A DNA stretch of 37,289 nucleotides from Bacillota bacterium. GTDB taxonomy: Bacteria > Bacillota > Clostridia > Peptostreptococcales > Anaerovoracaceae. Of this stretch, positions 1-10,492 are shown piece after piece. The notes under the pieces are model-generated. The model did no database searches. It had not been told where the DNA came from and was given only the letters and a program-made list of their open reading frames with translations. Location: assembly GCA_041836105.1 (NCBI GenBank), contig JBGYKY010000016.1:1-37289 (forward strand), in the 5' to 3' direction. The first letter of the stretch is position 1. Every line of letters starts with the position of its first letter. The position numbers were made by a program, and so were the translations under genes.

Positions 1-2746
1 CGGAGAAAAACGCGATCCGATGATTTTCCGGGTACTGAAACCCGCCGTGGAGGATGGAATAGTCGGAAATAAACCGATACAGGTGGTTCAGCGCCGCAGC
101 ATTGTTGAAAAATTCCAGATGGGATTCCTCCCGCTCCGTTATCAGTGTCAGCATCTTCTTGTAGATCAACCAGAAAAGCGTGTTTTTCTCCTCCGGATCC
201 AAGCTGTCGGCGCCGAAGAGGTACTTTCCGATCACGTGAAAGGCCTCCTGGCTGACCAGGGGGTCATAGTTGGCCAATCCTCGAAGAAGGAGCCCTGCCA
301 GCAGCTCCCTGCGCCCGGAAAACGCAAGTTGATCTTCATAAAACCTATTTTTGTAAACCGGATAATGAGTCAAGAGCACACCGATAGTGTTGAGGGTCAC
401 GGAAGCGATCCTTTCATTTCGGCTTTCCAACAGCTTTCCCAGGTGAGCGATCAGCTCGTCCAGCTCATTGGGATGGAGGAAAAGCGCGATCTCCCCTAAA
501 TACTCCGGAATATACTTGGAAAACTGATATTCCCCGATCTCCAGACCCTTGGTCAGCTCGATGACGATCTCGTTTCGCTGGTCCAGGGTCAGCAGACCGA
601 TGGCATACGTTAGCCCCTTCCCTGCGGAATGGCGCACCGTCACACGCTCACTGACCTTCAACAGATTGGACAGGTGGGTAGCGATGTGGAGGGTTTCCTC
701 CCGTCGCCCCAGGCGGAGCCGCTCCAGCAGGTATTCAATGTTGACGGCCTTAATAATCCAGGGGGTGCCCACCTTCAGGTTTTCTAAAAACAGATCGGAA
801 GCAGATTCTCCTGTCCCATACATCCGGCTTCGCATTTTTTCCAGCTCCTCCGGCAAATAGTCCATCCGGGAAAGGATCTGATATTTAAGGTAGAGGCTCC
901 CTGTGTAGACCTCCGGCAAGGCCAGGGTCGTCTGGAGGATCTGTTCCGCCAGCTTTGGCGGGATTTTTTCCGCGGGGAAGCTCTTAACGTAGTGCTCCAA
1001 TACCCGGAGAATACCCAGATGGATTTCATCGGAAGTGCGGCCGTTCAGGGAGAAGCAGAACTCCAGGAGGATTCGCTGCTCCTCTCCGGTACAGTCCTGA
1101 AGGGGCAGATACAGCATAGAATCCAGGAGGATAAAGGCGGTGGGATCGTCCAGAATACCACGGCGATAAAACCCGACGATCATCTCCAGATATTTCCTTC
1201 GCTCTGCCTTCGGTACCCGGTTTAACAAGGTGTTGATTATGATCTTCCAGGTGTACCCGATCCATCGCCGATGATTTTCCGTGACCTTGTGCTCGGGGAA
1301 AACAATTCGGCTGAAGTACTCCTCGCACAGCTCTGCGGCGCTTATTTCGCCGCTGATAGGCTTTACCCCGCTGGGGAGCTCCTTTCGGTATTCTTCGTCG
1401 AAGTGGGCTAGGAGCATACCCATCAGCTCTGCCGCCAGACGGCGGATGTCCCCCTCCCGGTGCATCAGTAGCTCATAGAGAAAGTTCATGGTCATGACCT
1501 TCTGCCGCTGGGTCATGTAGGTGAAATATTCATAGAAAATGTTGATATAGGATCGAACCTGCTTCCACTGCTTTTCCGAGCGAGCCGCTTCCAGCAGATC
1601 GCCGAACGCCACCTCGTCATTAAACAGCTTCATGACAGAGATGTTGTGCTCAATGGCCAGATCCTTCAGCCGCCGGATGGCGCCTTCGCTGTTCAGGAGC
1701 GGTTCAAAGGTCCTGGATGCGGGGCGGAGAACCGGATCCTCCGGGTCGGTGCTGACTCCCAGTCCCTTCATATATTCTTCAAAATCCTTCAGCTTGGCAT
1801 ACACCCGTTCGTAGCGCTTCCGCTTGGCATCGTCCACGTTGTCCAGCTTGCGGAGGATGACGTGGAAGGACTCATCCAGGGTATAGATCCGGATCTCTTC
1901 TTTTCCCTGAGCATCCCGTCCGCCTTTGACCCGAAAATCCGCATAAATCAGTACCAGCGACTCCACCGAAAGGTTTTCCAGCTCCAGATCCCAGGTGGAA
2001 TGATTGGTGGCGATGTGGCCGATAATGGGCATAAGGTTGGTCTTGAAAAACAGATCCGTGTAGTAATAGTGTAGATAGGGAATCCGCTGATTTTCCGAAT
2101 CCCGGCAACCAAACTTTCCGATATCGTGCCCAGCGGCCGCACCGGACACCAGGGCTTTATCAATAGGTACACCGGCCTGGCTCAACTGACGTCCGATGGC
2201 TACGGCGATCCGGTGAACTCCGTTGATGTGCCCAAGAATATTGTAGCCGGTCACTTCGCCGTATAGCAGCATAAACTCGTTGAGATAATGCTGCTCCCAG
2301 TATTGGGTCAGCCGCTGATATTCTCCGCGCCCGCTGCAAAGAGCCACTTCCTCTGAATCCAAAAACCGGATCTGTTCCTCGCCGCCCGGAACGGAACAGC
2401 CGGGCAGGGCTAAAAAAGTTCGGATGGCCTGCAGGATGACGTGACGAGCCAGGCGTCCCTCCCGGCTTTCCTGCACTCCTTTTTCTCCCGGGAAGAGCTG
2501 CCCCAGGGTCGCGTCCAGCACATATCTGGCCCAGCCCTGCTTCGGCTCGGGCGCAATGCGCTTTAGCAATGGAAAAAGAGCCCGGATCAGATCCTCACAG
2601 CAAAGGATCCGATCCGGCCCCAGGTCCGGAAGCCGCCCTGCCGCCTTCTCTTCGGTCAGCAGCTCTGACATCTGTTTTTTTGTAATGCTGTTTGCCTTTA
2701 AGAATTTCCTGCCCAGCAGGTCTCGCACAATGGGTTCAATGATCAT
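1..2746 (-). CDS. Very large HD-domain metal-dependent phosphohydrolase with a long helical-repeat (HEAT/ARM-like) C-terminal region. Partial: the C-terminus lies beyond the window start (>915 aa)
   Basis: Absent from the ORF track because it has no in-window stop. My manual minus-strand translation from ATG 2746-2744 stays open down to base 2. It reads MIIEPIVRDLLGRKFL...GYNILGHINGVHRIAVAIGRQL...AAAGHDIGKF (H-D at 2123-2128)...IGHIATNHSTWD...LIYADFRVK, which fits the H..HD..H..D signature. All listed minus ORFs in 1-2700 are short and in other frames. Confidence 0.8.
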   Translation of the reverse strand, partial: MIIEPIVRDLLGRKFLKANSITKKQMSELLTEEKAAGRLPDLGPDRILCCEDLIRALFPLLKRIAPEPKQGWARYVLDATLGQLFPGEKGVQESREGRLARHVILQAIRTFLALPGCSVPGGEEQIRFLDSEEVALCSGRGEYQRLTQYWEQHYLNEFMLLYGEVTGYNILGHINGVHRIAVAIGRQLSQAGVPIDKALVSGAAAGHDIGKFGCRDSENQRIPYLHYYYTDLFFKTNLMPIIGHIATNHSTWDLELENLSVESLVLIYADFRVKGGRDAQGKEEIRIYTLDESFHVILRKLDNVDDAKRKRYERVYAKLKDFEEYMKGLGVSTDPEDPVLRPASRTFEPLLNSEGAIRRLKDLAIEHNISVMKLFNDEVAFGDLLEAARSEKQWKQVRSYINIFYEYFTYMTQRQKVMTMNFLYELLMHREGDIRRLAAELMGMLLAHFDEEYRKELPSGVKPISGEISAAELCEEYFSRIVFPEHKVTENHRRWIGYTWKIIINTLLNRVPKAERRKYLEMIVGFYRRGILDDPTAFILLDSMLYLPLQDCTGEEQRILLEFCFSLNGRTSDEIHLGILRVLEHYVKSFPAEKIPPKLAEQILQTTLALPEVYTGSLYLKYQILSRMDYLPEELEKMRSRMYGTGESASDLFLENLKVGTPWIIKAVNIEYLLERLRLGRREETLHIATHLSNLLKVSERVTVRHSAGKGLTYAIGLLTLDQRNEIVIELTKGLEIGEYQFSKYIPEYLGEIALFLHPNELDELIAHLGKLLESRNERIASVTLNTIGVLLTHYPVYKNRFYEDQLAFSGRRELLAGLLLRGLANYDPLVSQEAFHVIGKYLFGADSLDPEEKNTLFWLIYKKMLTLITEREESHLEFFNNAAALNHLYRFISDYSILHGGFQYPENHRIAFFS

Positions 2747-3065
2747 CCTCTACCTCTTCCAGCAGGACCCGGTCCAAGAAGGATCCTCTGGCCTCTCGTT
2801 TAATCAGCCGGAGATAGTCAATGTGCATCGGCTCGTACTCCTTAAGCTTCACCAGGCAATCCAGGGCCTCGTAAATATCAGCGATCTCCTCTTCATTGCC
2901 GCTGATTTGGTACTCCTTGATTTCTTCAATGATCTTTTCGATCAAGGCCTGCTCATACTCCTGCTCGCCCAGAATCCTGGAGACCTGCCTTCTCCCGCTT
3001 TCTTCAATCAACTGAGGGATGCGGTCTCGAACCAGCTTGTTGTACGATATCTTCACTTCGTCCAC
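2736..3065 (-). CDS. Small MazG/HisE-like all-alpha nucleoside-triphosphate pyrophosphohydrolase
   Basis: The N-terminus ISYNKLVRDRIPQLIE and the later EEIADIYEAL are typical of predicted house-cleaning NTP pyrophosphatases. AGGAGG (reverse complement of 3066-3071) abuts the GTG at 3065, so the GTG at 3056 (8-nt spacing, MKISYNKL...) is the likelier start. The TGA stop at 2736-2738 overlaps the HD-gene ATG by 11 nt. Confidence 0.75.
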   Translation of the reverse strand: MDEVKISYNKLVRDRIPQLIEESGRRQVSRILGEQEYEQALIEKIIEEIKEYQISGNEEEIADIYEALDCLVKLKEYEPMHIDYLRLIKREARGSFLDRVLLEEVEDDH

Positions 3066-3093
3066 CTCCTGTCTATCTCGCCGCTATACTTTT

Positions 3094-3121
3094 ATTATAT
3101 AAAATCTGCGGATATTTACAA
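3094..3121 (-). promoter_or_regulatory. Sigma-A-like promoter for the MazG-like/HD operon (TTGTAA-16 nt-TATAAT)
   Basis: On the minus strand, -35 TTGTAA is the reverse complement of 3116-3121 and -10 TATAAT is the reverse complement of 3094-3099. This lies about 30 nt upstream of the start. Confidence 0.5.
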
Positions 3122-3161
3122 GCCATCCCTTCTCCCTGTTTTTTTATTTTCATTTTTCCTC

Positions 3162-3190
3162 TTGACATTAATAGTCACGTAGACTATACT
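3162..3190 (+). promoter_or_regulatory. Sigma-A-like promoter of the nrtR/NAD operon (TTGACA-17 nt-TATACT)
   Basis: Perfect -35 TTGACA at 3162-3167, a 17-nt spacer, and -10 TATACT at 3185-3190. Confidence 0.65.
3169..3189. promoter_or_regulatory. Candidate NrtR operator 1 (palindrome ATAGTC-ACGTA-GACTAT with a GT-N7-AC core)
   Basis: The arms at 3171-3176 and 3182-3187 are perfect 6-nt inverted repeats. GT at 3174-3175 and AC at 3183-3184 are separated by 7 nt, which matches the published NrtR core. The site sits inside the spacer and -10 of the promoter. Confidence 0.55.
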
Positions 3191-3196
3191 GTGTTT

Positions 3197-3217
3197 AAAT
3201 AGTTTAATTGACCATTA
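3197..3217. promoter_or_regulatory. Candidate NrtR operator 2 (AAATAGT-TTAATTG-ACCATTA)
   Basis: GT at 3202-3203 and AC at 3211-3212 are spaced by 7 nt. The half-sites AAATAGT and TAATGGT (reverse complement) match in 5 of 7 positions and resemble the operator 1 half-site TAATAGT. The site lies just downstream of the -10. Confidence 0.4.
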
Positions 3218-3303
3218 TTGCTTTCAGCCCGCCCGGCAGAAGCTGCCGCTTCCCTTGGGATCCGCGGGAAAACAGGGTCCTTTCATGAAAGGTGGTAAAC
3301 AAA

Positions 3304-4050
3304 ATGAACACGGAAGAAAAATTCTTACGGGAGTATCGGGAACAGGATTACGAAAAGCTTTCCTGCACCACCGATATCCTGATTTTTACCATCGGCCGGG
3401 AGCATCAGCTGCAGGTGCTGCTGAAAAAGCGGCGGCAGCTTCCCTTTCGGGGGCGGTGGGCTCTGCCCGGCGGAGTCGTAGGCATCAGGGAGTCTCTGGA
3501 AGACTCAGCCCGGCGGGTGCTTTTGGAAAAAACCGGGCTGTCCCGGCTTCATCTGGAGCAGCTGTACACCTTTGGCCAGCCGGACCGGGACTCCCGAATG
3601 CGTTTCGTCAGCGCTGCGTGTCTGGCCCTGCTGCCCTGAAATTCCCATCCGGCGCTGGAAGAGGACTCCGCTTTTTTCTCTGTCCGGCGCCAGGGGTCGG
3701 AATGGGTCCTGCAGGGAAGCGAGCCGCTCTCTCCGGCGGATCTGGCCTTTGATCACCGGCACATCCTCCAGACCGCCCTGGAGAGAATAAGCGGCAAGCT
3801 GCACTATTCGGATATCGGGCTCCGATTGGTGCAGGATCCGAACAGATTCACCATTTTCGAGCTGCAAAAGGTTTTTGAGGCCATTGAAAACAAAAGCTAC
3901 GATGTCCCCAACTTTCGCCGCTACTTTAAAAATCGGTACGAAAGCACCGGCATTGCCGAAAAGACGCCGGAGGTTTCCACGGAGCTTTCCAAACGTCCCA
4001 GCAGCTATTACCGGCTGACGGCCCCCCTGTTTAGCGGGGAGCATGCATAA
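3304..4050 (+). pseudogene. nrtR: NrtR-family regulator (N-terminal Nudix-like domain plus C-terminal winged-helix) interrupted by one in-frame TGA at 3637-3639
   Basis: Track ORFs 3292..3639 and 3826..4050 are in the same frame. My translation across the gap reads ...FVSAACLALLP*NSHPALEEDSAFFSVRRQGSEWVLQGSEPLSPADLAFDHRHILQTALERISGKLHYSDIGLRLVQDPNRFTIFELQKVFEAI...NFRRYF..., with no other stop. The Nudix-fold region is GRWALPGGVVGIRESLEDSARRVLLEKTG. The likely start is ATG 3304 (SD AAGGTGG 8 nt upstream). Confidence 0.8.
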
Positions 4051-4064
4051 AGGAGGAATCTGCC

Positions 4065-4616
4065 ATGAAAAAGAAGCTGTTGCTGGTTATTGATATGCAA
4101 AAGGATTTTATCACCGGCCCCCTGGGCAACGATGCATGCCGCGCCGTTGTTCCCCGTGTCATACGGCGCATGGAAGAGGCGCGGGCGAAGGGATGGCAGA
4201 TCCTTTGCACCCGGGATATCCACGAGGAAAACTATCTGAGCACCGGCGAAGGAAGGCGACTGCCGGTCCCTCACTGCCTCCGGGGCAGTCGGGGCTCAGA
4301 GCTGATCGACGAAATCCGGGCGCTTGAGGAAAGCTGGGCGGACCGGGAGCAGGTCTTTCTTCCCATCCACCCCCTGGAAAAAAGCGCCTTTGGCAGCTTG
4401 AAGCTTCCACAGCTTTTGGGCGCCGAAGAATGGGAGGAGATCCAGCTGGTCGGCGTCTGCACCGATATCTGTGTTCTGTCCAATGCCATCATCCTTCGTT
4501 CTGCCTACCCGGAGGCAGAGATCACCGTCCTCTCCGACTGCTGCGCCGGCGTCACCGGAGAGAGTCACCGGGTTGCGCTGCAGGCCATGGCAGGATGTCA
4601 GATCCGCATACTTTAA
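4065..4616 (+). CDS. pncA: Isochorismatase-family cysteine hydrolase, nicotinamidase-like
   Basis: LLVIDMQKDF, a conserved Lys context (EKSAFGS) and the catalytic Cys in GVCTDICV. SD AAAGGAGGA precedes the start. It begins 14 nt after the nrtR stop. Confidence 0.75.
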   Translation: MKKKLLLVIDMQKDFITGPLGNDACRAVVPRVIRRMEEARAKGWQILCTRDIHEENYLSTGEGRRLPVPHCLRGSRGSELIDEIRALEESWADREQVFLPIHPLEKSAFGSLKLPQLLGAEEWEEIQLVGVCTDICVLSNAIILRSAYPEAEITVLSDCCAGVTGESHRVALQAMAGCQIRIL

Positions 4617-4637
4617 GCACCGGCAGGAGGAATCGCC

Positions 4638-5462
4638 ATGATTTTTGTAAACCATAAGCCCATCGACAAAAAGCAGTTCCCCGACGGAACCTTTCTCCTG
4701 CACTGCCCGGAAGCCTCGGAAGAGGTCCGACTGGAATGGCGCTATGAGGAGGATGGCGAGCTGTTTCAGCTTATCTGCCTGACCAGGCATCTGCAAAATG
4801 TGCCGGGAAGAAGGCTGATCCTTTCCCTTCCTTATCTCCCCAATGCCCGCATGGATCGGGTCCATGCCGACGATGAGGTGTTTACCCTGAAGCATTTCTG
4901 CCGAACGATCAACGATCTCGGTTTTGATCGGGTGGAGGTGCTGGATGCCCACTCCACCGTGGGACTGGCCCTGTTGGATCGGGTACGGGCGCTCTCCCCG
5001 GCTCCTTATCTGGAGCAGGTGCTCCTGCAGCTGGACCGTCTCCACGGAAAGGTCCTGCTGTATTTCCCCGATGAAGGAGCCTATAAGCGGTACCAGCCCA
5101 TGCTCCCTGAGCGGCCCTGCTGCTACGGACGAAAAAAAAGGGACTGGAATACCGGCACGATTACCGGTCTGGAGGTGGCCGATAACGGGAATCCCCCGGA
5201 GGGTGCCGCCGTACTGATGGTGGACGATATCTGCAGCTATGGCGGGACCTTCTACTACAGCGCCTTAGCGCTCAAGGAGCGAGGCGCCGCTGCCCTTTAC
5301 TCCTTCGCCACCCATACGGAAATGAGCCTACTGGAGGAAAAAAGCAACTATCTGTCGTTGCTGAAGGACGGTTCGGTCCTCCGGCACTTCACCACCGCCA
5401 GCCTCTACACTGGTCGCCTGGAATCCATTGAAGTGGTTTCCCCGAATCCCGACGCATACTGA
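4638..5462 (+). CDS. Divergent ribose-phosphate pyrophosphokinase (Prs)-family protein, 274 aa
   Basis: Prs-like motifs are present in altered form: FPDGT, PYLPNARMDR (canonical Prs has YARQDR), VLDAHS, a GRKKRD loop, and the PRPP-type loop VLMVDDICSYGGT. SD AGGAGGA precedes the start. Confidence 0.75.
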   Translation: MIFVNHKPIDKKQFPDGTFLLHCPEASEEVRLEWRYEEDGELFQLICLTRHLQNVPGRRLILSLPYLPNARMDRVHADDEVFTLKHFCRTINDLGFDRVEVLDAHSTVGLALLDRVRALSPAPYLEQVLLQLDRLHGKVLLYFPDEGAYKRYQPMLPERPCCYGRKKRDWNTGTITGLEVADNGNPPEGAAVLMVDDICSYGGTFYYSALALKERGAAALYSFATHTEMSLLEEKSNYLSLLKDGSVLRHFTTASLYTGRLESIEVVSPNPDAY

Positions 5463-5476
5463 AAGGAGAGCCTCCC

Positions 5477-6946
5477 ATGAAAAAGACCCATCCCCTGCTC
5501 CTGATCGATTTTTACAAAGCGGTTCATTCGGATATGCTCCCCGCGGGCATTACCAAATCCGTTTCCTACTTTACCCCTCGCATGAGCCGGGTGGATCAGT
5601 GGCCCTCGGTCGTGATGTTCGGCCTGCAGGCCTTCATTAAAACCTACCTGATCGACTACTTCAACGAAGAGTTTTTTAAAAAGGACTTGGAAGAGGTGGT
5701 CCATGAGTACCGCCGTGTTCTGGATGCTGCGCTGGGCAGAGGCGTTTACTCCTGCGAGAGGGTCTCTCATCTCCATCGCCTGGGGTATCTTCCCATCGAA
5801 ATTATCGCCCTGCCGGAGGGAACCCGGGTCCCCATGCGCCTGCCCATGTTTGGCATTACCAACACCCATAACGATTTTGCCTGGCTGCCCCAGGCTCTGG
5901 AAAGCCTGCTTTCCGCTGAGCTGTGGCACCCCATGATCAGCGCTACGGTGGGCGCCTCCTATCGGGATATCGTCAACGAGTACGCAGAGAAAACCTGTGA
6001 TGCTGCCGTGGCTCCGGCCCGATTGCTGGGGGATTTCTCCTTCCGCGGTCAGGAGTGTCTCCAGTCTGCCGTCAAAAGCTCCGCCGGCTTCTGCCTGTCT
6101 TTTCTGAACACGGCAACGGTTCCGGTCATCCCCTTTCTGGAGGAAAACTACAACTGCGACTGCCAGCGGGAGCCGGTGGCCTTTGGCAGCCCCAGCACCG
6201 AGCACAGCGTCATGTGCAGCAACTATGCGGTGGATGGCGATGAAATCACCCTGCTGCGAAGGCTTCTCCGGGAGATTTATCCTCATAACAGCTTTTCCGT
6301 GGTGCTGGATTCTTACGATTACTGGAACGTCATCGACAATATCCTCCCTCAGCTGAAGGATGAAATCCTGGCCCACGACGGCTGCATGCTGATGCGAGGG
6401 GACTCGGGGGACTGCGCGGAGGTGGTGACCGAAACCGTCTTTCGCCTGTGGAAGCTGTTTGGCGGCACGGTCAACAGCAAGGGATACAAGGTGCTGGATC
6501 CTCATGTAAAGGCGATTTACGGGGACAGCATCACCCTGACTCGCTGCCGACGGATCTATGAAATCCTGGAAGCAAACGGATTCGCCATTTCCAATGTTGC
6601 CCTGGGTGTTGGAAGCTTTTCTATGCAGTGCATTGAGGAAGGAGACCAGCTAAAGCCCTTTACCCGGGATACCTTTTCCTTTGCCGTCAAAGCCACCTAC
6701 ATGGAAATCAGCGGAAAGCCCTACCCCATTTTCAAAAACCCCCGGGAGAGCGGCTTTAAAACCAGCCAAAAGGGGTGCTGTATCGTTTGGGAGAAGGAGG
6801 GAAAGTTGACCTACGAGGACGGGTATTCCTGGGCAGGGTCGCAGGTACCGGGCAATCGGCTGGAGAGCATTTTCCGTGACGGGCTCCTCCTGAAGCAGCA
6901 AACCCTGTCTGAAATCCGTGAAATCCTGCACGGCGGGAAATTCTGA
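5477..6946 (+). CDS. nadV: Nicotinamide phosphoribosyltransferase (NAMPT/NadV) family protein
   Basis: LLLIDFYKAVH (compare NAMPT DSYK.sH), PSTEHSVM (the EHS histidine motif), MRGDSGD and AIYGDSIT. 489 aa. SD AAAGGAGAG precedes the start. Confidence 0.8.
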   Translation: MKKTHPLLLIDFYKAVHSDMLPAGITKSVSYFTPRMSRVDQWPSVVMFGLQAFIKTYLIDYFNEEFFKKDLEEVVHEYRRVLDAALGRGVYSCERVSHLHRLGYLPIEIIALPEGTRVPMRLPMFGITNTHNDFAWLPQALESLLSAELWHPMISATVGASYRDIVNEYAEKTCDAAVAPARLLGDFSFRGQECLQSAVKSSAGFCLSFLNTATVPVIPFLEENYNCDCQREPVAFGSPSTEHSVMCSNYAVDGDEITLLRRLLREIYPHNSFSVVLDSYDYWNVIDNILPQLKDEILAHDGCMLMRGDSGDCAEVVTETVFRLWKLFGGTVNSKGYKVLDPHVKAIYGDSITLTRCRRIYEILEANGFAISNVALGVGSFSMQCIEEGDQLKPFTRDTFSFAVKATYMEISGKPYPIFKNPRESGFKTSQKGCCIVWEKEGKLTYEDGYSWAGSQVPGNRLESIFRDGLLLKQQTLSEIREILHGGKF

Positions 6947-7006
6947 AGCAGGCCCGGGGCGCAGGATCAAAGAGCACAGCTCCATACAGAAAGCGCATAT
7001 GATACG

Positions 7007-7027
7007 TAATGGTATGTAATACTGCAC
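7007..7027. promoter_or_regulatory. Weak candidate NrtR operator upstream of nadE (TAATGGT-ATGTAAT-ACTGCAC)
   Basis: The left half TAATGGT is identical to a half-site of operator 2, and GT-N7-AC spacing is present (GT 7012-7013, AC 7021-7022). The right half is poor (3 of 7). Confidence 0.25.
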
Positions 7028-7076
7028 AATGATAACACGCATATCCGATAAAAACAGATCGTGGAGGTTATGAACG

Positions 7077-7826
7077 ATGGAAGCCAAAGTATTTCAAGCG
7101 GAAAAGGTTACCGAAGACTGCATTTGCTGGATTCGGGAATGGTTTGAGGAAAACGGCCGGGGATGCAGCGCCGTCGTCGGTATCTCCGGAGGGAAGGATT
7201 CCTCTCTGGTCGCCGCTCTCTGCGCCCGGGCCCTGGGCGCAGAGAGGGTCATCGGGGTACTGATGCCGGAAGGCACCCAAAAAGACATCGACGCCGCGCA
7301 CCTGCTCTGCAGGCATCTTGGCATCGAGTCTCTTGTTATTAACATCGGAGAAGCGGTCCGGCAGGTCAAAAACGCCGTGACGACGGCTCTGGGTCAAGAG
7401 CTGTCGTCACAATCTGTCATCAACCTGCCCCCCCGAATCCGCATGTCAGTGCTTTACGCCGTATCCCAAACCCGAAACGGCCGGGTAGCCAATACCTGCA
7501 ATCTGAGCGAAGATTGGGTCGGCTATTCCACCCGGTACGGGGATGCCGCCGGAGACTTCTCTCCCCTGGCACACTTGACGGTACAGGAGATCAAGCAGAT
7601 GGGCCGCGTCCTGGGGCTTCCCCCGGAGCTGATCGAAAAGGTCCCCAGCGACGGGCTTACCGGGAAGTCCGATGAGGAAAACCTGGGGTTCACCTATCAG
7701 GAGCTGGATCAATACATCCGGGAGGGCGTGATTGAGGATCCGGCTCACCGAGAAAGGATTGATGCCCTCCATCAAAGGAACCTCTTCAAGCTTCGTCCCA
7801 TCCCCTTTTTTCCCTACGAGGGGTAA
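7077..7826 (+). CDS. nadE: Ammonia-dependent NAD+ synthetase
   Basis: PP-loop VVGISGGKDSSLVAAL. The size (249 aa) and the C-terminal region match NadE. Confidence 0.9.
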   Translation: MEAKVFQAEKVTEDCICWIREWFEENGRGCSAVVGISGGKDSSLVAALCARALGAERVIGVLMPEGTQKDIDAAHLLCRHLGIESLVINIGEAVRQVKNAVTTALGQELSSQSVINLPPRIRMSVLYAVSQTRNGRVANTCNLSEDWVGYSTRYGDAAGDFSPLAHLTVQEIKQMGRVLGLPPELIEKVPSDGLTGKSDEENLGFTYQELDQYIREGVIEDPAHRERIDALHQRNLFKLRPIPFFPYEG

Positions 7827-10492
7827 TCTTTCCTCTGCTCTTTCTCCTGCTCCGGCCTGATGGCCCTTCTGCCACAGGCCTTTTTTCCTGCTGTATTTTT
7901 GTAGATCTCCAGCACCAGTACCGGTACCAGCGCCAAGGCCAGGCCGATCCCGTAGAGGGATGCGGGCAGCGCCGTCAGCCCGAAGGCGGTGCACACCGGC
8001 GGAACGAAAAGCACCAGAGCCACCAGCGCCAAGGATAGCAGGACGGCGCCGTTAAGGATCCTGTTGGTAAAAACGCCTGTCATCCGCAAAGAAAGAGAGG
8101 ACCGCATGTTAAAGGCGTGAAAGGTCTGTGAAAGCGCCAGCACCATGAAAGCCAGCGTTCTGGCGCCCTCCAGTTCTCCCGTATGCGACCAGGCCAGGGC
8201 GAATCCGCACAGAGTCAACAGAGCAAACATCAGCCCCTGCAGAACGATGCGAAGACCGTATCCGTTGGCAAAGATTCCCTCCTCTTTGGGCTTGGGCTTT
8301 TGCGTCATCACATCGTCCCGGACAGGCTCCATGCCCAGGGCGATAGCCGGCAGGCTGTCTGTGATCAGATTGATCCAAAGGAGATGGATAGCCAGGAAGG
8401 GGGATACCTTCCAGAGAACCATGGCTGCCAGCACGATCAGCACTTCCCCGATGTTGGTTCCCAACAAGAATCCGACAGTGTGGCGGATATTTTCATAGAT
8501 TCCCCGTCCCTCCCGGACTGCATCGACGATAGTGGCAAAATTATCATCGGAAAGGATCATATCCGAAGCGCCCTTGGCCACATCCGTTCCCGTAATTCCC
8601 ATGGCGCACCCAATATCGGCCGCCTTCAGGGCCGGGGCATCGTTCACGCCGTCCCCTGTCATGGACACCACGGCTCCCCGTTTCTGCCAGGCTTGAATGA
8701 TCCGGATTTTATCCTCCGGTGAAACCCGCGCGTAAACAGAAATCTCTTCGACCTGGGTCACCAGCTCTTCTTCCGACAGCGCCGACAGCTCCATCCCCGA
8801 TATGGCCCGGTCCCCTTCCTTTAAGATGCCCAGTTCATTGGCAATGGCGGAGGCCGTCAGCACATGATCCCCGGTAATCATGACCGGTCTGATACCGGCT
8901 TCCCGGCATAGAGCGACAGCTGCCGCCGCTTCCGGCCTCGGGGGATCGATCATTCCCAGCAGCCCCAGGAAGGTCAGTTCTGTTTCCAGATCCTCCGAGG
9001 TCATCTCCGGGCGGTATTCATCAATATACCTCACCCCTACGGCCAGCACCCGCAAGGCCCGGCCGCCCATATCCCCATTGGCCTGCCGGCCGCCTTCCAA
9101 ATTTCCAGCGGCACAGCGAGCAGCCATTTCATCAAAGGCGCCTTTAACGATCACCAAAATCCGTCCGTCAGGATCCCGATGGATCGACGCCATCATTTTT
9201 CGATCCGAATCAAAAGGCAGCGTACCCAGCCGGGGATACTGCTCCATAGCCTCGCTCTTTCGGATCCCCCGCTTTTCTCCTTCCATCAGGATAGAGGTTT
9301 CCGTAGGGTCACCGATGGGCACCGGTTCTCCGGTTTCCGCGGCGCCGATTTTCCCTTCAGAGCACAGGGCACCCCAGCGCAGCAGCTCCAGTGCCTGTGC
9401 GGACAGCGGGCCCTCCGTCTTTTCCAGGGTATTGGCCGCAGCAACATATACCTGAGTCAACGTCATCCGATTCTGGGTCAGGGTCCCCGTTTTGTCGGAG
9501 CAGATGACCGAGGTGCTTCCCAGGGTTTCCACGGCTGGCAGCTTTCGGATGATAGCATTCTTCCGAACCATTTTCTGGACGCCCAGCGCCAGTACCACGG
9601 TCACGATGGCCGGCAGCCCTTCCGGGATCGCCGACACGGCCAGCGCTACGGCGATCATGAAAATTTCAACAATCTCCATGCCGTCCAGCAAGCCGAGAAT
9701 AAAGATGACGATGCACACGCCAACGGCCAGCAGGCCAATCCACCTGCCCAGCTGCTCCAGCTTATGCTGGAGGGGTGTTCCCGTATCCTCCGCTCCGGCG
9801 ATAAGCCGGGCGATTTTTCCGATTTCCGTATCCATTCCCGTCGCCGTAATCACCGCCTTGGCTGTACCGTAGGTAACGCTGCAACCGGAATAAATCATGT
9901 TGGTTCGGTCTCCTAAGGGGATATTCCCCTCCTCCAGGATGCCCGCCTGCTTTTCCTCCGGCTCCGACTCCCCCGTCAAAGCCGACTCTTCGGTCTTCAG
10001 GCTGCTGGACTGAAGGATCCGTCCATCGGCGGGCACAAAATCTCCCGCTTCAAGAAAAATCAGATCCCCCGGAACCAGCTCTGACGCGTCGATAACCCGT
10101 TCCTCTCCTTTCCGAATGACTCGGGCTTTTGGGGCTGACATTTTCTTTAAGGCTTCCAGTGCTCTCTCGGCCTTTCCTTCCTGAACGGTCCCGATAATAG
10201 CGTTGAGAACCACGATCAACAAAATCAGGATGGGCTCAAAATACCCTTCCTTTTCCATGAAAGCGATCACAAAGGAAACGCCTGCCGCAGCCAGCAGGAT
10301 CAGGATCATCAGGTCCTTAAACTGGGAAAAAAATTGCTGGATGACCGTTTTTTTTCGGCCCTCCGTCAGACGGTTCAGACCATTTTCGCGAAGCCGTTTT
10401 TGCGCTTCCTCTTCGCTGAGCCCCTGCTCTCCATGGGAAGAAAGCCGGTCCAGCAATTCCTGCTCACTCATCTGATACGGGGTTCTCTGCAT
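7814..10492 (-). CDS. Cation-transporting P-type ATPase (Ca2+-ATPase, P2A-like)
   Basis: CSDKTGTLTQNRM, MITGDH, TGDGVNDAPALKAADIG and about 10 TM segments. The track ORF extends to 10636, but ATG 10492 (MQRTPYQMSEQELL) follows SD GGAAGGAGAGG and lies just after the upstream gene stop at 10506. Confidence 0.9.
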   Translation of the reverse strand: MQRTPYQMSEQELLDRLSSHGEQGLSEEEAQKRLRENGLNRLTEGRKKTVIQQFFSQFKDLMILILLAAAGVSFVIAFMEKEGYFEPILILLIVVLNAIIGTVQEGKAERALEALKKMSAPKARVIRKGEERVIDASELVPGDLIFLEAGDFVPADGRILQSSSLKTEESALTGESEPEEKQAGILEEGNIPLGDRTNMIYSGCSVTYGTAKAVITATGMDTEIGKIARLIAGAEDTGTPLQHKLEQLGRWIGLLAVGVCIVIFILGLLDGMEIVEIFMIAVALAVSAIPEGLPAIVTVVLALGVQKMVRKNAIIRKLPAVETLGSTSVICSDKTGTLTQNRMTLTQVYVAAANTLEKTEGPLSAQALELLRWGALCSEGKIGAAETGEPVPIGDPTETSILMEGEKRGIRKSEAMEQYPRLGTLPFDSDRKMMASIHRDPDGRILVIVKGAFDEMAARCAAGNLEGGRQANGDMGGRALRVLAVGVRYIDEYRPEMTSEDLETELTFLGLLGMIDPPRPEAAAAVALCREAGIRPVMITGDHVLTASAIANELGILKEGDRAISGMELSALSEEELVTQVEEISVYARVSPEDKIRIIQAWQKRGAVVSMTGDGVNDAPALKAADIGCAMGITGTDVAKGASDMILSDDNFATIVDAVREGRGIYENIRHTVGFLLGTNIGEVLIVLAAMVLWKVSPFLAIHLLWINLITDSLPAIALGMEPVRDDVMTQKPKPKEEGIFANGYGLRIVLQGLMFALLTLCGFALAWSHTGELEGARTLAFMVLALSQTFHAFNMRSSLSLRMTGVFTNRILNGAVLLSLALVALVLFVPPVCTAFGLTALPASLYGIGLALALVPVLVLEIYKNTAGKKACGRRAIRPEQEKEQRKDYPS

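Follow-up and report, generated by a model that had tools for sequence, protein, structure and literature searches.

A chromosomal NrtR-type operon encodes a candidate nicotinate-based variant of the NARP1 pathway

Contig JBGYKY010000016.1 of assembly GCA_041836105.1, from a member of the Anaerovoracaceae (Bacillota, Clostridia), was analysed over positions 1 to 37,289 of its forward strand, and this whole stretch of 37,289 nucleotides (nt) is called the window below. It contains an operon in which nrtR, a regulator gene, precedes a pncA-like nicotinamidase gene, a gene for a divergent homologue of the phosphoribosyl pyrophosphate (PRPP) synthetase Prs, a gene for a NAMPT homologue and nadE, which encodes a nicotinamide adenine dinucleotide (NAD) synthetase. 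The Prs-like and NAMPT-like proteins resemble Adps and Namat, the pair that constitutes NARP1 in the phages SPbetaL1, Bas63, ICP1 and FADO (Osterman et al. 2024, bioRxiv 10.1101/2024.02.11.579819). We regard it as very probable that the window pair belongs to this Adps/Namat lineage and not to housekeeping Prs and NadV. For the mechanism as a whole our confidence is moderate: we favour a chromosomal NrtR-type operon for a four-enzyme, deamidated variant of NARP1, which would rebuild NAD from ADP-ribose (ADPR) by way of nicotinate.

A preliminary description of the locus had proposed that NAD is recycled here from ADPR rather than from PRPP, and each part of that proposal that could be tested on the sequences held. 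Its boldest suggestion, that of a deamidated branch, came out best supported: together with the pair, pncA and nadE make up a conserved cassette, which co-varies with a three-residue switch in the pyridine pocket of the Namat-like protein.

The pyridine pocket and its gene neighbourhood

A joint alignment of 218 Namat homologues, with neighbouring genes scored within the examined flanks, divides at the residue corresponding to position 215 of SPbetaL1 Namat. All 82 homologues with Asp or Glu at this position lack pncA and nadE in their flanks. The remaining 136 carry Ala or Ser, and pncA lies near 128 of them; pncA, adps and nadE occur together near 112. Of the positions at which the SPbetaL1 structure shows contact with nicotinamide or NAD, just three are switched, and these change together: G213 becomes Asn (128 of 131) or Lys (5 of 5), D215 becomes Ala (131) or Ser (5), and A242 becomes Ser in all 136. 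In the window protein N-T-A-T accordingly replaces G-T-D-T (Asn213, Ala215) and Ser replaces Ala242. No ribose, phosphate or catalytic residue is switched, and D13, Y15, F189, R192, R306, D308, G360, D361, G390, T398, R399 and D400 are constant in virtually all sequences. The nicotinamide pocket set of F189, R192, D215, A242, R306, D13′ and Y15′ is kept in the window protein except at D215 and A242.

D215 forms a hydrogen bond with nicotinamide in the crystal structure of SPbetaL1 Namat, and the D215A mutation cuts NAD formation 8.1-fold (PMC12774641); of the corresponding mutants of human NAMPT, D219S (Khan et al. 2006) is tabulated as a switch in substrate affinity and D219A as a loss of activity (PMC4919578). 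Removal of the acidic residue, together with the gain of hydrogen-bond donors near the substituent of the pyridine ring, would fit a change of substrate from an amide to a carboxylate, and the window protein is probably a Namat-clade enzyme that is not a nicotinamide transferase. Human D219S, reportedly a switch towards nicotinate, replaces Asp at the same position as SPbetaL1 D215; it differs in being an engineered change in a PRPP-using enzyme, whereas the change in the window is natural and comes with two further pocket changes.

The pncA-like protein has an Isochorismatase domain (5.7e-29), and its closest solved relatives are the pyrazinamidase/nicotinamidase of Pyrococcus horikoshii (1im5) and the nicotinamidase of Streptococcus pneumoniae (3o90). 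Its triad D10, K106 and C136 and its metal site D51, H53 and H70 align with those of P. horikoshii PncA and are invariant in 127–128 of the 128 cassette copies. It is a short, 183-amino-acid (aa) form that scores 31 with PRK11609, for which the cutoff is 174. NadE matches PF02540 (1e-52) and TIGR00552 (177 bits, cutoff 63.65) and has no glutaminase domain.

A search with the Namat-like protein recovered 80 bacterial genomes or metagenome-assembled genomes from Clostridia, including Filifactor, Peptostreptococcaceae, Mogibacterium and many Lachnospiraceae and Oscillospiraceae, and 51 IMG/VR viral contigs; the viral contigs with a full-length match of 65–75% are mostly 40–170 kb long. The gene order pncA-adps-namat-nadE recurs in nearly all of the 131 related loci. 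Of the 80 genome loci, 64 also have NrtR, which lies upstream in 22 and downstream in 42; none of the 51 viral loci has it. A viral scan seeded instead on SPbetaL1 and ICP1 gave 80 loci, of which one has the four-gene cassette and 79 lack both pncA and nadE; Adps adjoins Namat in 74 of the latter. Among 50,697 GenBank phage records, 2,042 of which have a homologue, only MT835544.1, an unannotated human faecal phage scaffold, matches at 60% identity or more (62%), and there the order is rearranged to Adps ... Namat ... NadE-PncA. Such rarity could be the reason that a nicotinate-type variant escaped notice in surveys of cultured phages.

In 18 of 53 viral cassette copies a Macro-domain gene (phrog_335 'phosphatase', 1.7e-44; for example at 8283–8789 of viral locus L001) lies between the Namat-like gene and nadE. 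It is probably the ADPR-1″-phosphate phosphatase Adpp of NARP1-AP, a system of Adps, the Macro-domain phosphatase Adpp and Namat (bioRxiv 10.64898/2026.01.28.702374). The accessory NARP1 genes described so far are this phosphatase and RyDEP. NARP1-AP and the window operon are alike in that NARP1 operons gain accessory genes; the window differs in having no Macro gene, and its own accessory proteins, PncA and NadE, would act on the pyridine half of NAD and not on the ADPR half.

Placement of the Adps-like and Namat-like proteins

The preliminary description had judged the Prs-like protein unlikely to be the housekeeping PRPP synthetase, citing altered motifs (FPDGT, YLPNARMDR, VLDAHS, GRKKRD and VDDICSYGGT) that are all present, and profile placement agrees with it. 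On TIGR01251 (cutoff 113 bits) the protein scores 64 bits, in line with the validated Adps proteins of ICP1 (98) and SPbetaL1 (106) and far from Escherichia coli Prs (423); it falls far below the cutoff of every one of the 11 NCBIfam/TIGRFAM Prs models, 64 against 113 being its best result. On a hidden Markov model built from 77 Adps proteins encoded beside classic Namats, with the clade of the window left out, it reaches 194.6 bits and E. coli Prs 126.8. The placement is thus one by profile scores, with E. coli Prs as the only canonical Prs sequence compared.

Residues point the same way. F18, R87, H121, D161, K185, D212 and D213 (ICP1 numbering) are kept in the window protein and in 131 of 131 cassette copies; the ICP1 structure paper (PMC13586617) ties these residues to ADPR binding and catalysis and describes the loss of the C-terminal α11–α12 module of Prs, which is absent from the window protein as well. 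The PP loop is of the Adps type, with C215 and F221 in the window protein and in all 131 copies where E. coli Prs has Ile and Leu. F92 and D216 are not kept, and both vary among classic Adps too. The protein is 35% identical to SPbetaL1 Adps, and its gene adjoins the Namat-like gene, an adjacency found in nearly all related loci; within the Adps clade, 97% of members are encoded beside a Namat-clade gene (Osterman et al. 2024). The closest chain in the Protein Data Bank (PDB), in a copy that holds no Adps chain, is an archaeal Prs at 64 bits, and no canonical prs occurs in the 220 loci examined. By these sequence characters the protein is Adps-like and not a canonical PRPP synthetase. As a side observation, the 547-position PHROG family phrog_12872 is matched in its N-terminal part by the Adps-like protein and in its C-terminal part by the Namat-like protein, a pattern that suggests that fused Adps-Namat proteins exist in some phages.

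The NAMPT-like protein carries the motifs noted earlier (DFYK, EHS, RGDSGD and YGDS) and is of Namat type by bit score, SPbetaL1 Namat being far closer to it than NAMPT or NadV: in the PDB it scores 410 bits with 9w5x/9w5w, 341 with 9ke8, 158 with Xanthomonas Nampt and 135 with human NAMPT. The chains 9w5x/9w5w are presumably SPbetaL1 Namat, since they align with the Namat-like protein in the way that SPbetaL1 Namat does, and the phage protein itself shares 44.7% identity with the query over 99% of its length. PF04095 and PF18127 are above their cutoffs, as is NF006629 (436 bits, cutoff 405), a broad model that includes the validated Namats, which score 594 and 488.

Of the clamp residues, R40 (the SCL stacking residue) and F392 (position 3 of the SCH motif) do not vary among the 131 members of the Ala-type clade. 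In SPbetaL1 Namat, R40A/F392G abolishes ADPR-PP-dependent NAD synthesis and leaves PRPP activity in place (PMC12774641), ADPR-PP being the pyrophosphate of ADPR. The conservation of R40 and F392, together with an obligatory Adps-like neighbour, therefore argues for an adenine-bearing substrate. [quoted passage not shown]

Neighbour joining unites the 136 PncA/NadE-linked proteins in a single clade, whose basal members (L220, L001–L004 and L007, the last being MT835544.1) are viral or element-borne and in which bacterial NrtR-linked groups are nested at three places at least. The window protein lies in a 24-member, all-bacterial subclade with Filifactor and Peptostreptococcaceae, NrtR-linked in 21 of 23 related loci. 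This topology fits repeated exchange between phage and host, with NrtR control added on the bacterial side. A prophage origin of the window locus itself was considered and rejected, given its housekeeping flanks and the all-bacterial, NrtR-linked subclade of its Namat-like protein. Separately, L001–L004 and L220 make up a deeper-branching cassette subgroup with Lys213, Ser215 and Ser242 in which the clamp residue R40 is replaced by Met or Lys; these loci sit in phage-like or mobile-element surroundings with many small open reading frames (ORFs) and a radical-SAM gene.

Set beside phage NARP1, the window shares the adjacent pair of Prs and NAMPT homologues, a Namat-like protein with 45% full-length identity to SPbetaL1 Namat, and R40, F392 and the catalytic residues. 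It differs in having four genes instead of two through the addition of pncA and nadE, in the three switched nicotinamide-pocket residues, in the insertion in the clamp motif and the absence of a 13-aa loop after DSGD, and in being chromosomal and under NrtR operators. The preliminary description had read the locus as a chromosomal NARP1-like route; that interpretation is supported, and chromosomal NARP1 as such was already published. Osterman et al. (2024) reported NARP1 copies in bacteria outside prophages and speculated on housekeeping or regulatory ADPR-linked roles, and an Adps-Namat pair of Paenibacillus foliorum regenerates NAD from ADPR and nicotinamide in vitro and in vivo (Lan et al. 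2026, PMC12774641). Both that pair and the window pair are encoded in bacterial genomes. Unlike the window protein, pfNamat is 71.9% identical to SPbetaL1 Namat and would be of the classic Asp type, and Lan et al. (2026) make no mention of pncA, nadE or nicotinate. In the searchable literature, which is incomplete, NARP1, Adps, Namat and ADPR-PP are not linked to PncA, NadE, nicotinate adenine dinucleotide (NaAD) or deamidation; the NARP3 paper (PMC13464706), which holds both 'NARP1' and 'nicotinic acid', lies outside that statement. A nicotinate-type NARP1 would be undescribed so far, and absence from an incomplete literature search is no proof of novelty.

Proposed pathway and its alternatives

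In the pathway that we propose, NAD-consuming enzymes would free ADPR and nicotinamide, and ADPR would normally release NrtR from the two promoter operators (in this genome expression is probably constitutive, given a nonsense codon in nrtR). PncA would convert nicotinamide to nicotinate and ammonia, and the Adps-like kinase would convert ADPR and ATP to ADPR-PP and AMP. The Namat-like enzyme, its pocket lacking the nicotinamide-binding Asp and having gained Asn and Ser, would then join nicotinate to ADPR-PP, giving NaAD and pyrophosphate, and NadE would complete NAD from NaAD with ATP and, probably, ammonia. The net reaction would be ADPR + nicotinamide + 2 ATP → NAD, bypassing nicotinate mononucleotide (NaMN), nicotinamide mononucleotide (NMN) and any adenylyltransferase. 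We infer every catalytic step here, along with the nicotinate specificity and the source of ammonia for NadE, and the Namat-like enzyme may use both nicotinate and nicotinamide. That nicotinate + ADPR-PP → NaAD + pyrophosphate is a new step, in a pathway widespread in gut and rumen Clostridia and in large phages and forming an NrtR-controlled closed NAD-repair loop in bacteria, is a broader claim to which we incline only slightly.

Several points weigh against this reading. The co-variation is drawn from two samples collected by similarity to different queries (the Namat-like protein on one side, SPbetaL1 and ICP1 on the other), and the correlation of residues with neighbourhood is for the most part a contrast between two clades, perhaps reflecting one evolutionary event; a few switched loci, such as L019, L075 and L087, lack pncA or nadE in the examined flanks. 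The proposed reaction of nicotinate with ADPR-PP would be one without an earlier report. Classic Namat accepts PRPP in vitro (PMC12774641), and the switched enzyme could make NaMN from PRPP. The clamp helix motif is broken by a 9-aa insertion that is itself conserved, and Y396 is not kept. The family phrog_619 had to be dropped as a discriminator for Adps, with 188 bits for the window protein and 193 for E. coli Prs. The route costs one ATP more than classic NARP1, an expense whose advantage is unexplained, and ADPR-responsive control cannot be claimed for this genome, as its nrtR is truncated.

The pocket switch, pncA and nadE would be explained equally well by a PRPP-based deamidated salvage, in which PRPP comes from the Prs-like protein and NaMN from the switched NAMPT-like enzyme, which replaces PncB; NadD encoded elsewhere would form NaAD, and NadE would act last. 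The use of PRPP by Namat in vitro, the acceptor-site residues common to Prs and Adps and the NF006629 score above cutoff are all compatible with it. Yet the Prs-like protein lies far below every Prs cutoff, lacks the C-terminal and regulatory modules of Prs and has an Adps-type PP loop; 131 sequences all keep clamp residues for which adenine stacking is the sole known role; and the cassette in the window has no adenylyltransferase gene linked to it. We consider this route unlikely, though still to be reckoned with, because the clamp motif is interrupted and Y396 is lost. If instead the chemistry were that of classic NARP1, the Namat-like enzyme would make NAD from nicotinamide and ADPR-PP, and pncA and nadE would be co-regulated parts of a Preiss-Handler route with pncB and nadD elsewhere. 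NrtR regulons do often hold pncA, pncB, nadD and nadE, as in the nrtR-pncA-pncB-nadD-nadE order of Clostridium acetobutylicum (PMC2330246), and the catalytic core and the clamp residues R40 and F392 of the Namat-like protein are intact. Such NrtR-controlled Preiss-Handler operons share with the window NrtR, palindromic GT-N7-AC operators, pncA in first place and nadE in last; what differs is that the Adps-like/Namat-like pair stands in place of pncB and nadD, which lead from nicotinate through NaMN to NaAD. This account must contend with an Ala in place of the nicotinamide-bonding residue, a substitution that is costly in SPbetaL1 Namat and listed as inactive in human NAMPT, with 51 NrtR-free viral contigs in which pncA and nadE accompany the pair, and with the absence of both genes near all 82 acidic-type Namats, and we think it quite improbable.

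The remaining possibility, that these are ordinary housekeeping genes for a PRPP synthetase and an NadV-type NAMPT that makes NMN, is in our view very improbable indeed. Source databases do call the relatives 'ribose-phosphate pyrophosphokinase', and Rodionov 2008 (PMC2330246) so read NrtR-linked prs-nadV pairs, finding the dedicated Prs 'quite unexpected' and leaving it unexplained. The gamma-proteobacterial operons of that kind (Shewanella, Acinetobacter; PMC2330246) resemble the window in combining NrtR, a second Prs paralogue and a NAMPT homologue, and differ in having neither pncA nor nadE. Against the housekeeping account stand the TIGR01251 score, so far below that of E. coli Prs, the 410 bits of the transferase to Namat against 135–158 to NAMPTs, and the missing nicotinamide-binding Asp. 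An NMN adenylyltransferase, which its product would need, has no gene in the window: as the preliminary description had stated, no NMN/NaMN adenylyltransferase gene is seen among the large ORFs.

Should the nicotinate-based mechanism be correct, it would add a new reaction and a new NAD salvage route that skips the near-universal NadD/NadM step, and the phage counter-defence NARP1 would have a second, nicotinate-based form that is barely present in cultured-phage databases. It would also give the bacterial NARP1 copies, whose role published papers leave open, a function in ADPR-induced recycling of both halves of cleaved NAD, and it would supply an annotation rule for gut metagenomes: N/K213, A/S215 and S242.

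Operators, the interrupted nrtR and the surroundings

The five genes lie where the preliminary description had put them (Table 1), co-directional on the + strand and separated by gaps of 14, 21, 14 and 130 nt, and Pfam and NCBIfam uphold its family assignments (NUDIX and NrtR_WHD, Isochorismatase, a weak Pribosyltran, NAMPT_N and NAPRTase, and NAD_synthase). A single promoter, as it had claimed, agrees with one strong promoter-like site in 2900–8100 and no terminator-like site in any of the four intergenic gaps.

Table 1. Coordinates of the operon and its control elements in the window
Feature	Position	Strand	Remarks
Sigma-70-type promoter	3162–3190	+	TTGACA (3162–3167), 17-nt spacer, TATACT (3185–3190); 11 of 12 consensus matches, best in 2900–8100
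NrtR operator 1 (predicted), ATAGTCACGTAGACTAT	3171–3187		Perfect palindrome ATAGTC-ACGTA-GACTAT, 0 mismatches, GT-N7-AC core
NrtR operator 2 (predicted), ATAGTTTAATTGACCAT	3199–3215		2 mismatches; near the transcription start, 28 bp beyond operator 1
nrtR	3304–4050	+	Nudix-like effector domain and winged-helix DNA-binding domain; in-frame TGA at 3637–3639
pncA-like nicotinamidase gene	4065–4616	+	183 aa, isochorismatase family
Adps-like ADP-ribose diphosphokinase candidate	4638–5462	+	Divergent Prs homologue, 274 aa
Namat-like transferase	5477–6946	+	NAMPT homologue, 489 aa; remodelled pyridine pocket, 9-aa clamp-helix insertion
Spacer between the Namat-like gene and nadE	6947–7076	+	130 nt, no terminator-like site
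nadE	7077–7826	+	Single-domain NAD synthetase, 249 aa

Predicted NrtR operators on the promoter support the NrtR-type control that had been suggested for the operon. Operator 1 occupies the promoter spacer and overlaps the −10 hexamer, and the chance expectation for the box at two mismatches or fewer is 0.46 in the whole window. The same box precedes nrtR in the nearest orthologous loci, namely L011 and L013 (two copies each, in tandem 26–30 bp apart), L012 and L005/L006. A GT-N7-AC core is a common feature of NrtR sites (Rodionov 2008, PMC2330246).

The regulator gene had been taken as intact, which it is not: its frame is interrupted by a TGA (...ACLALLP*NSHPALEE...) between the Nudix and winged-helix halves. 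The N-terminal half matches NUDIX (1.7e-10) and the C-terminal half NrtR_WHD (2.2e-11), and NF050029 matches both, with 78 and 53 bits against a cutoff of 400, which marks a family member and not an equivalog. In the five closest orthologues the interrupted codon encodes Arg (AGA in L011, L005, L010 and L013, CGC in the fifth), and the rest of the gene aligns to them without defects, so the TGA has arisen either by a recent single-base nonsense mutation or through an error in sequencing. As TGA also ends the NAMPT-like gene, it is a normal stop in this genome; recoding or selenocysteine insertion was rejected for nrtR, since that TGA falls where homologues predict the end of the Namat-like gene and the orthologous nrtR codon is Arg. 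As sequenced, nrtR yields a 111-aa Nudix fragment. Should the TGA be real, the repressor is left with no DNA-binding domain, and expression of the operon is probably constitutive here. Elsewhere, viral contig L160, which carries a classic Adps-Namat pair, has a weak (25%) NrtR/Nudix-like match at 4441–5043, immediately before the Adps gene; the product may be an enzyme of the Nudix type and not a regulator.

The genes flanking the operon are those of an ordinary chromosome: a P-type ATPase, tgt, queA, ruvAB, spoIID, ispH-S1, a recN-like gene and two-component genes. Tgt shares 79% identity with its counterparts in Aminipila and Anaerovoracaceae, which points to an uncultured member of that group as the probable source. 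Rfam and tRNA scans of the window gave no match. Divergent from the nrtR promoter, on the minus strand, lie a 109-aa ORF (2736–3065) and, following it, a stop-free ORF of at least 916 aa (2–2749) that runs off the left end of the window; neither matches a Pfam, NCBIfam (above noise) or PADLOC family. Within the operon, a short inverted repeat, ATAC-N6-GTAT, lies at about 7003–7016 in the 130 nt that separate the Namat-like gene from nadE; it is unlike the NrtR box.

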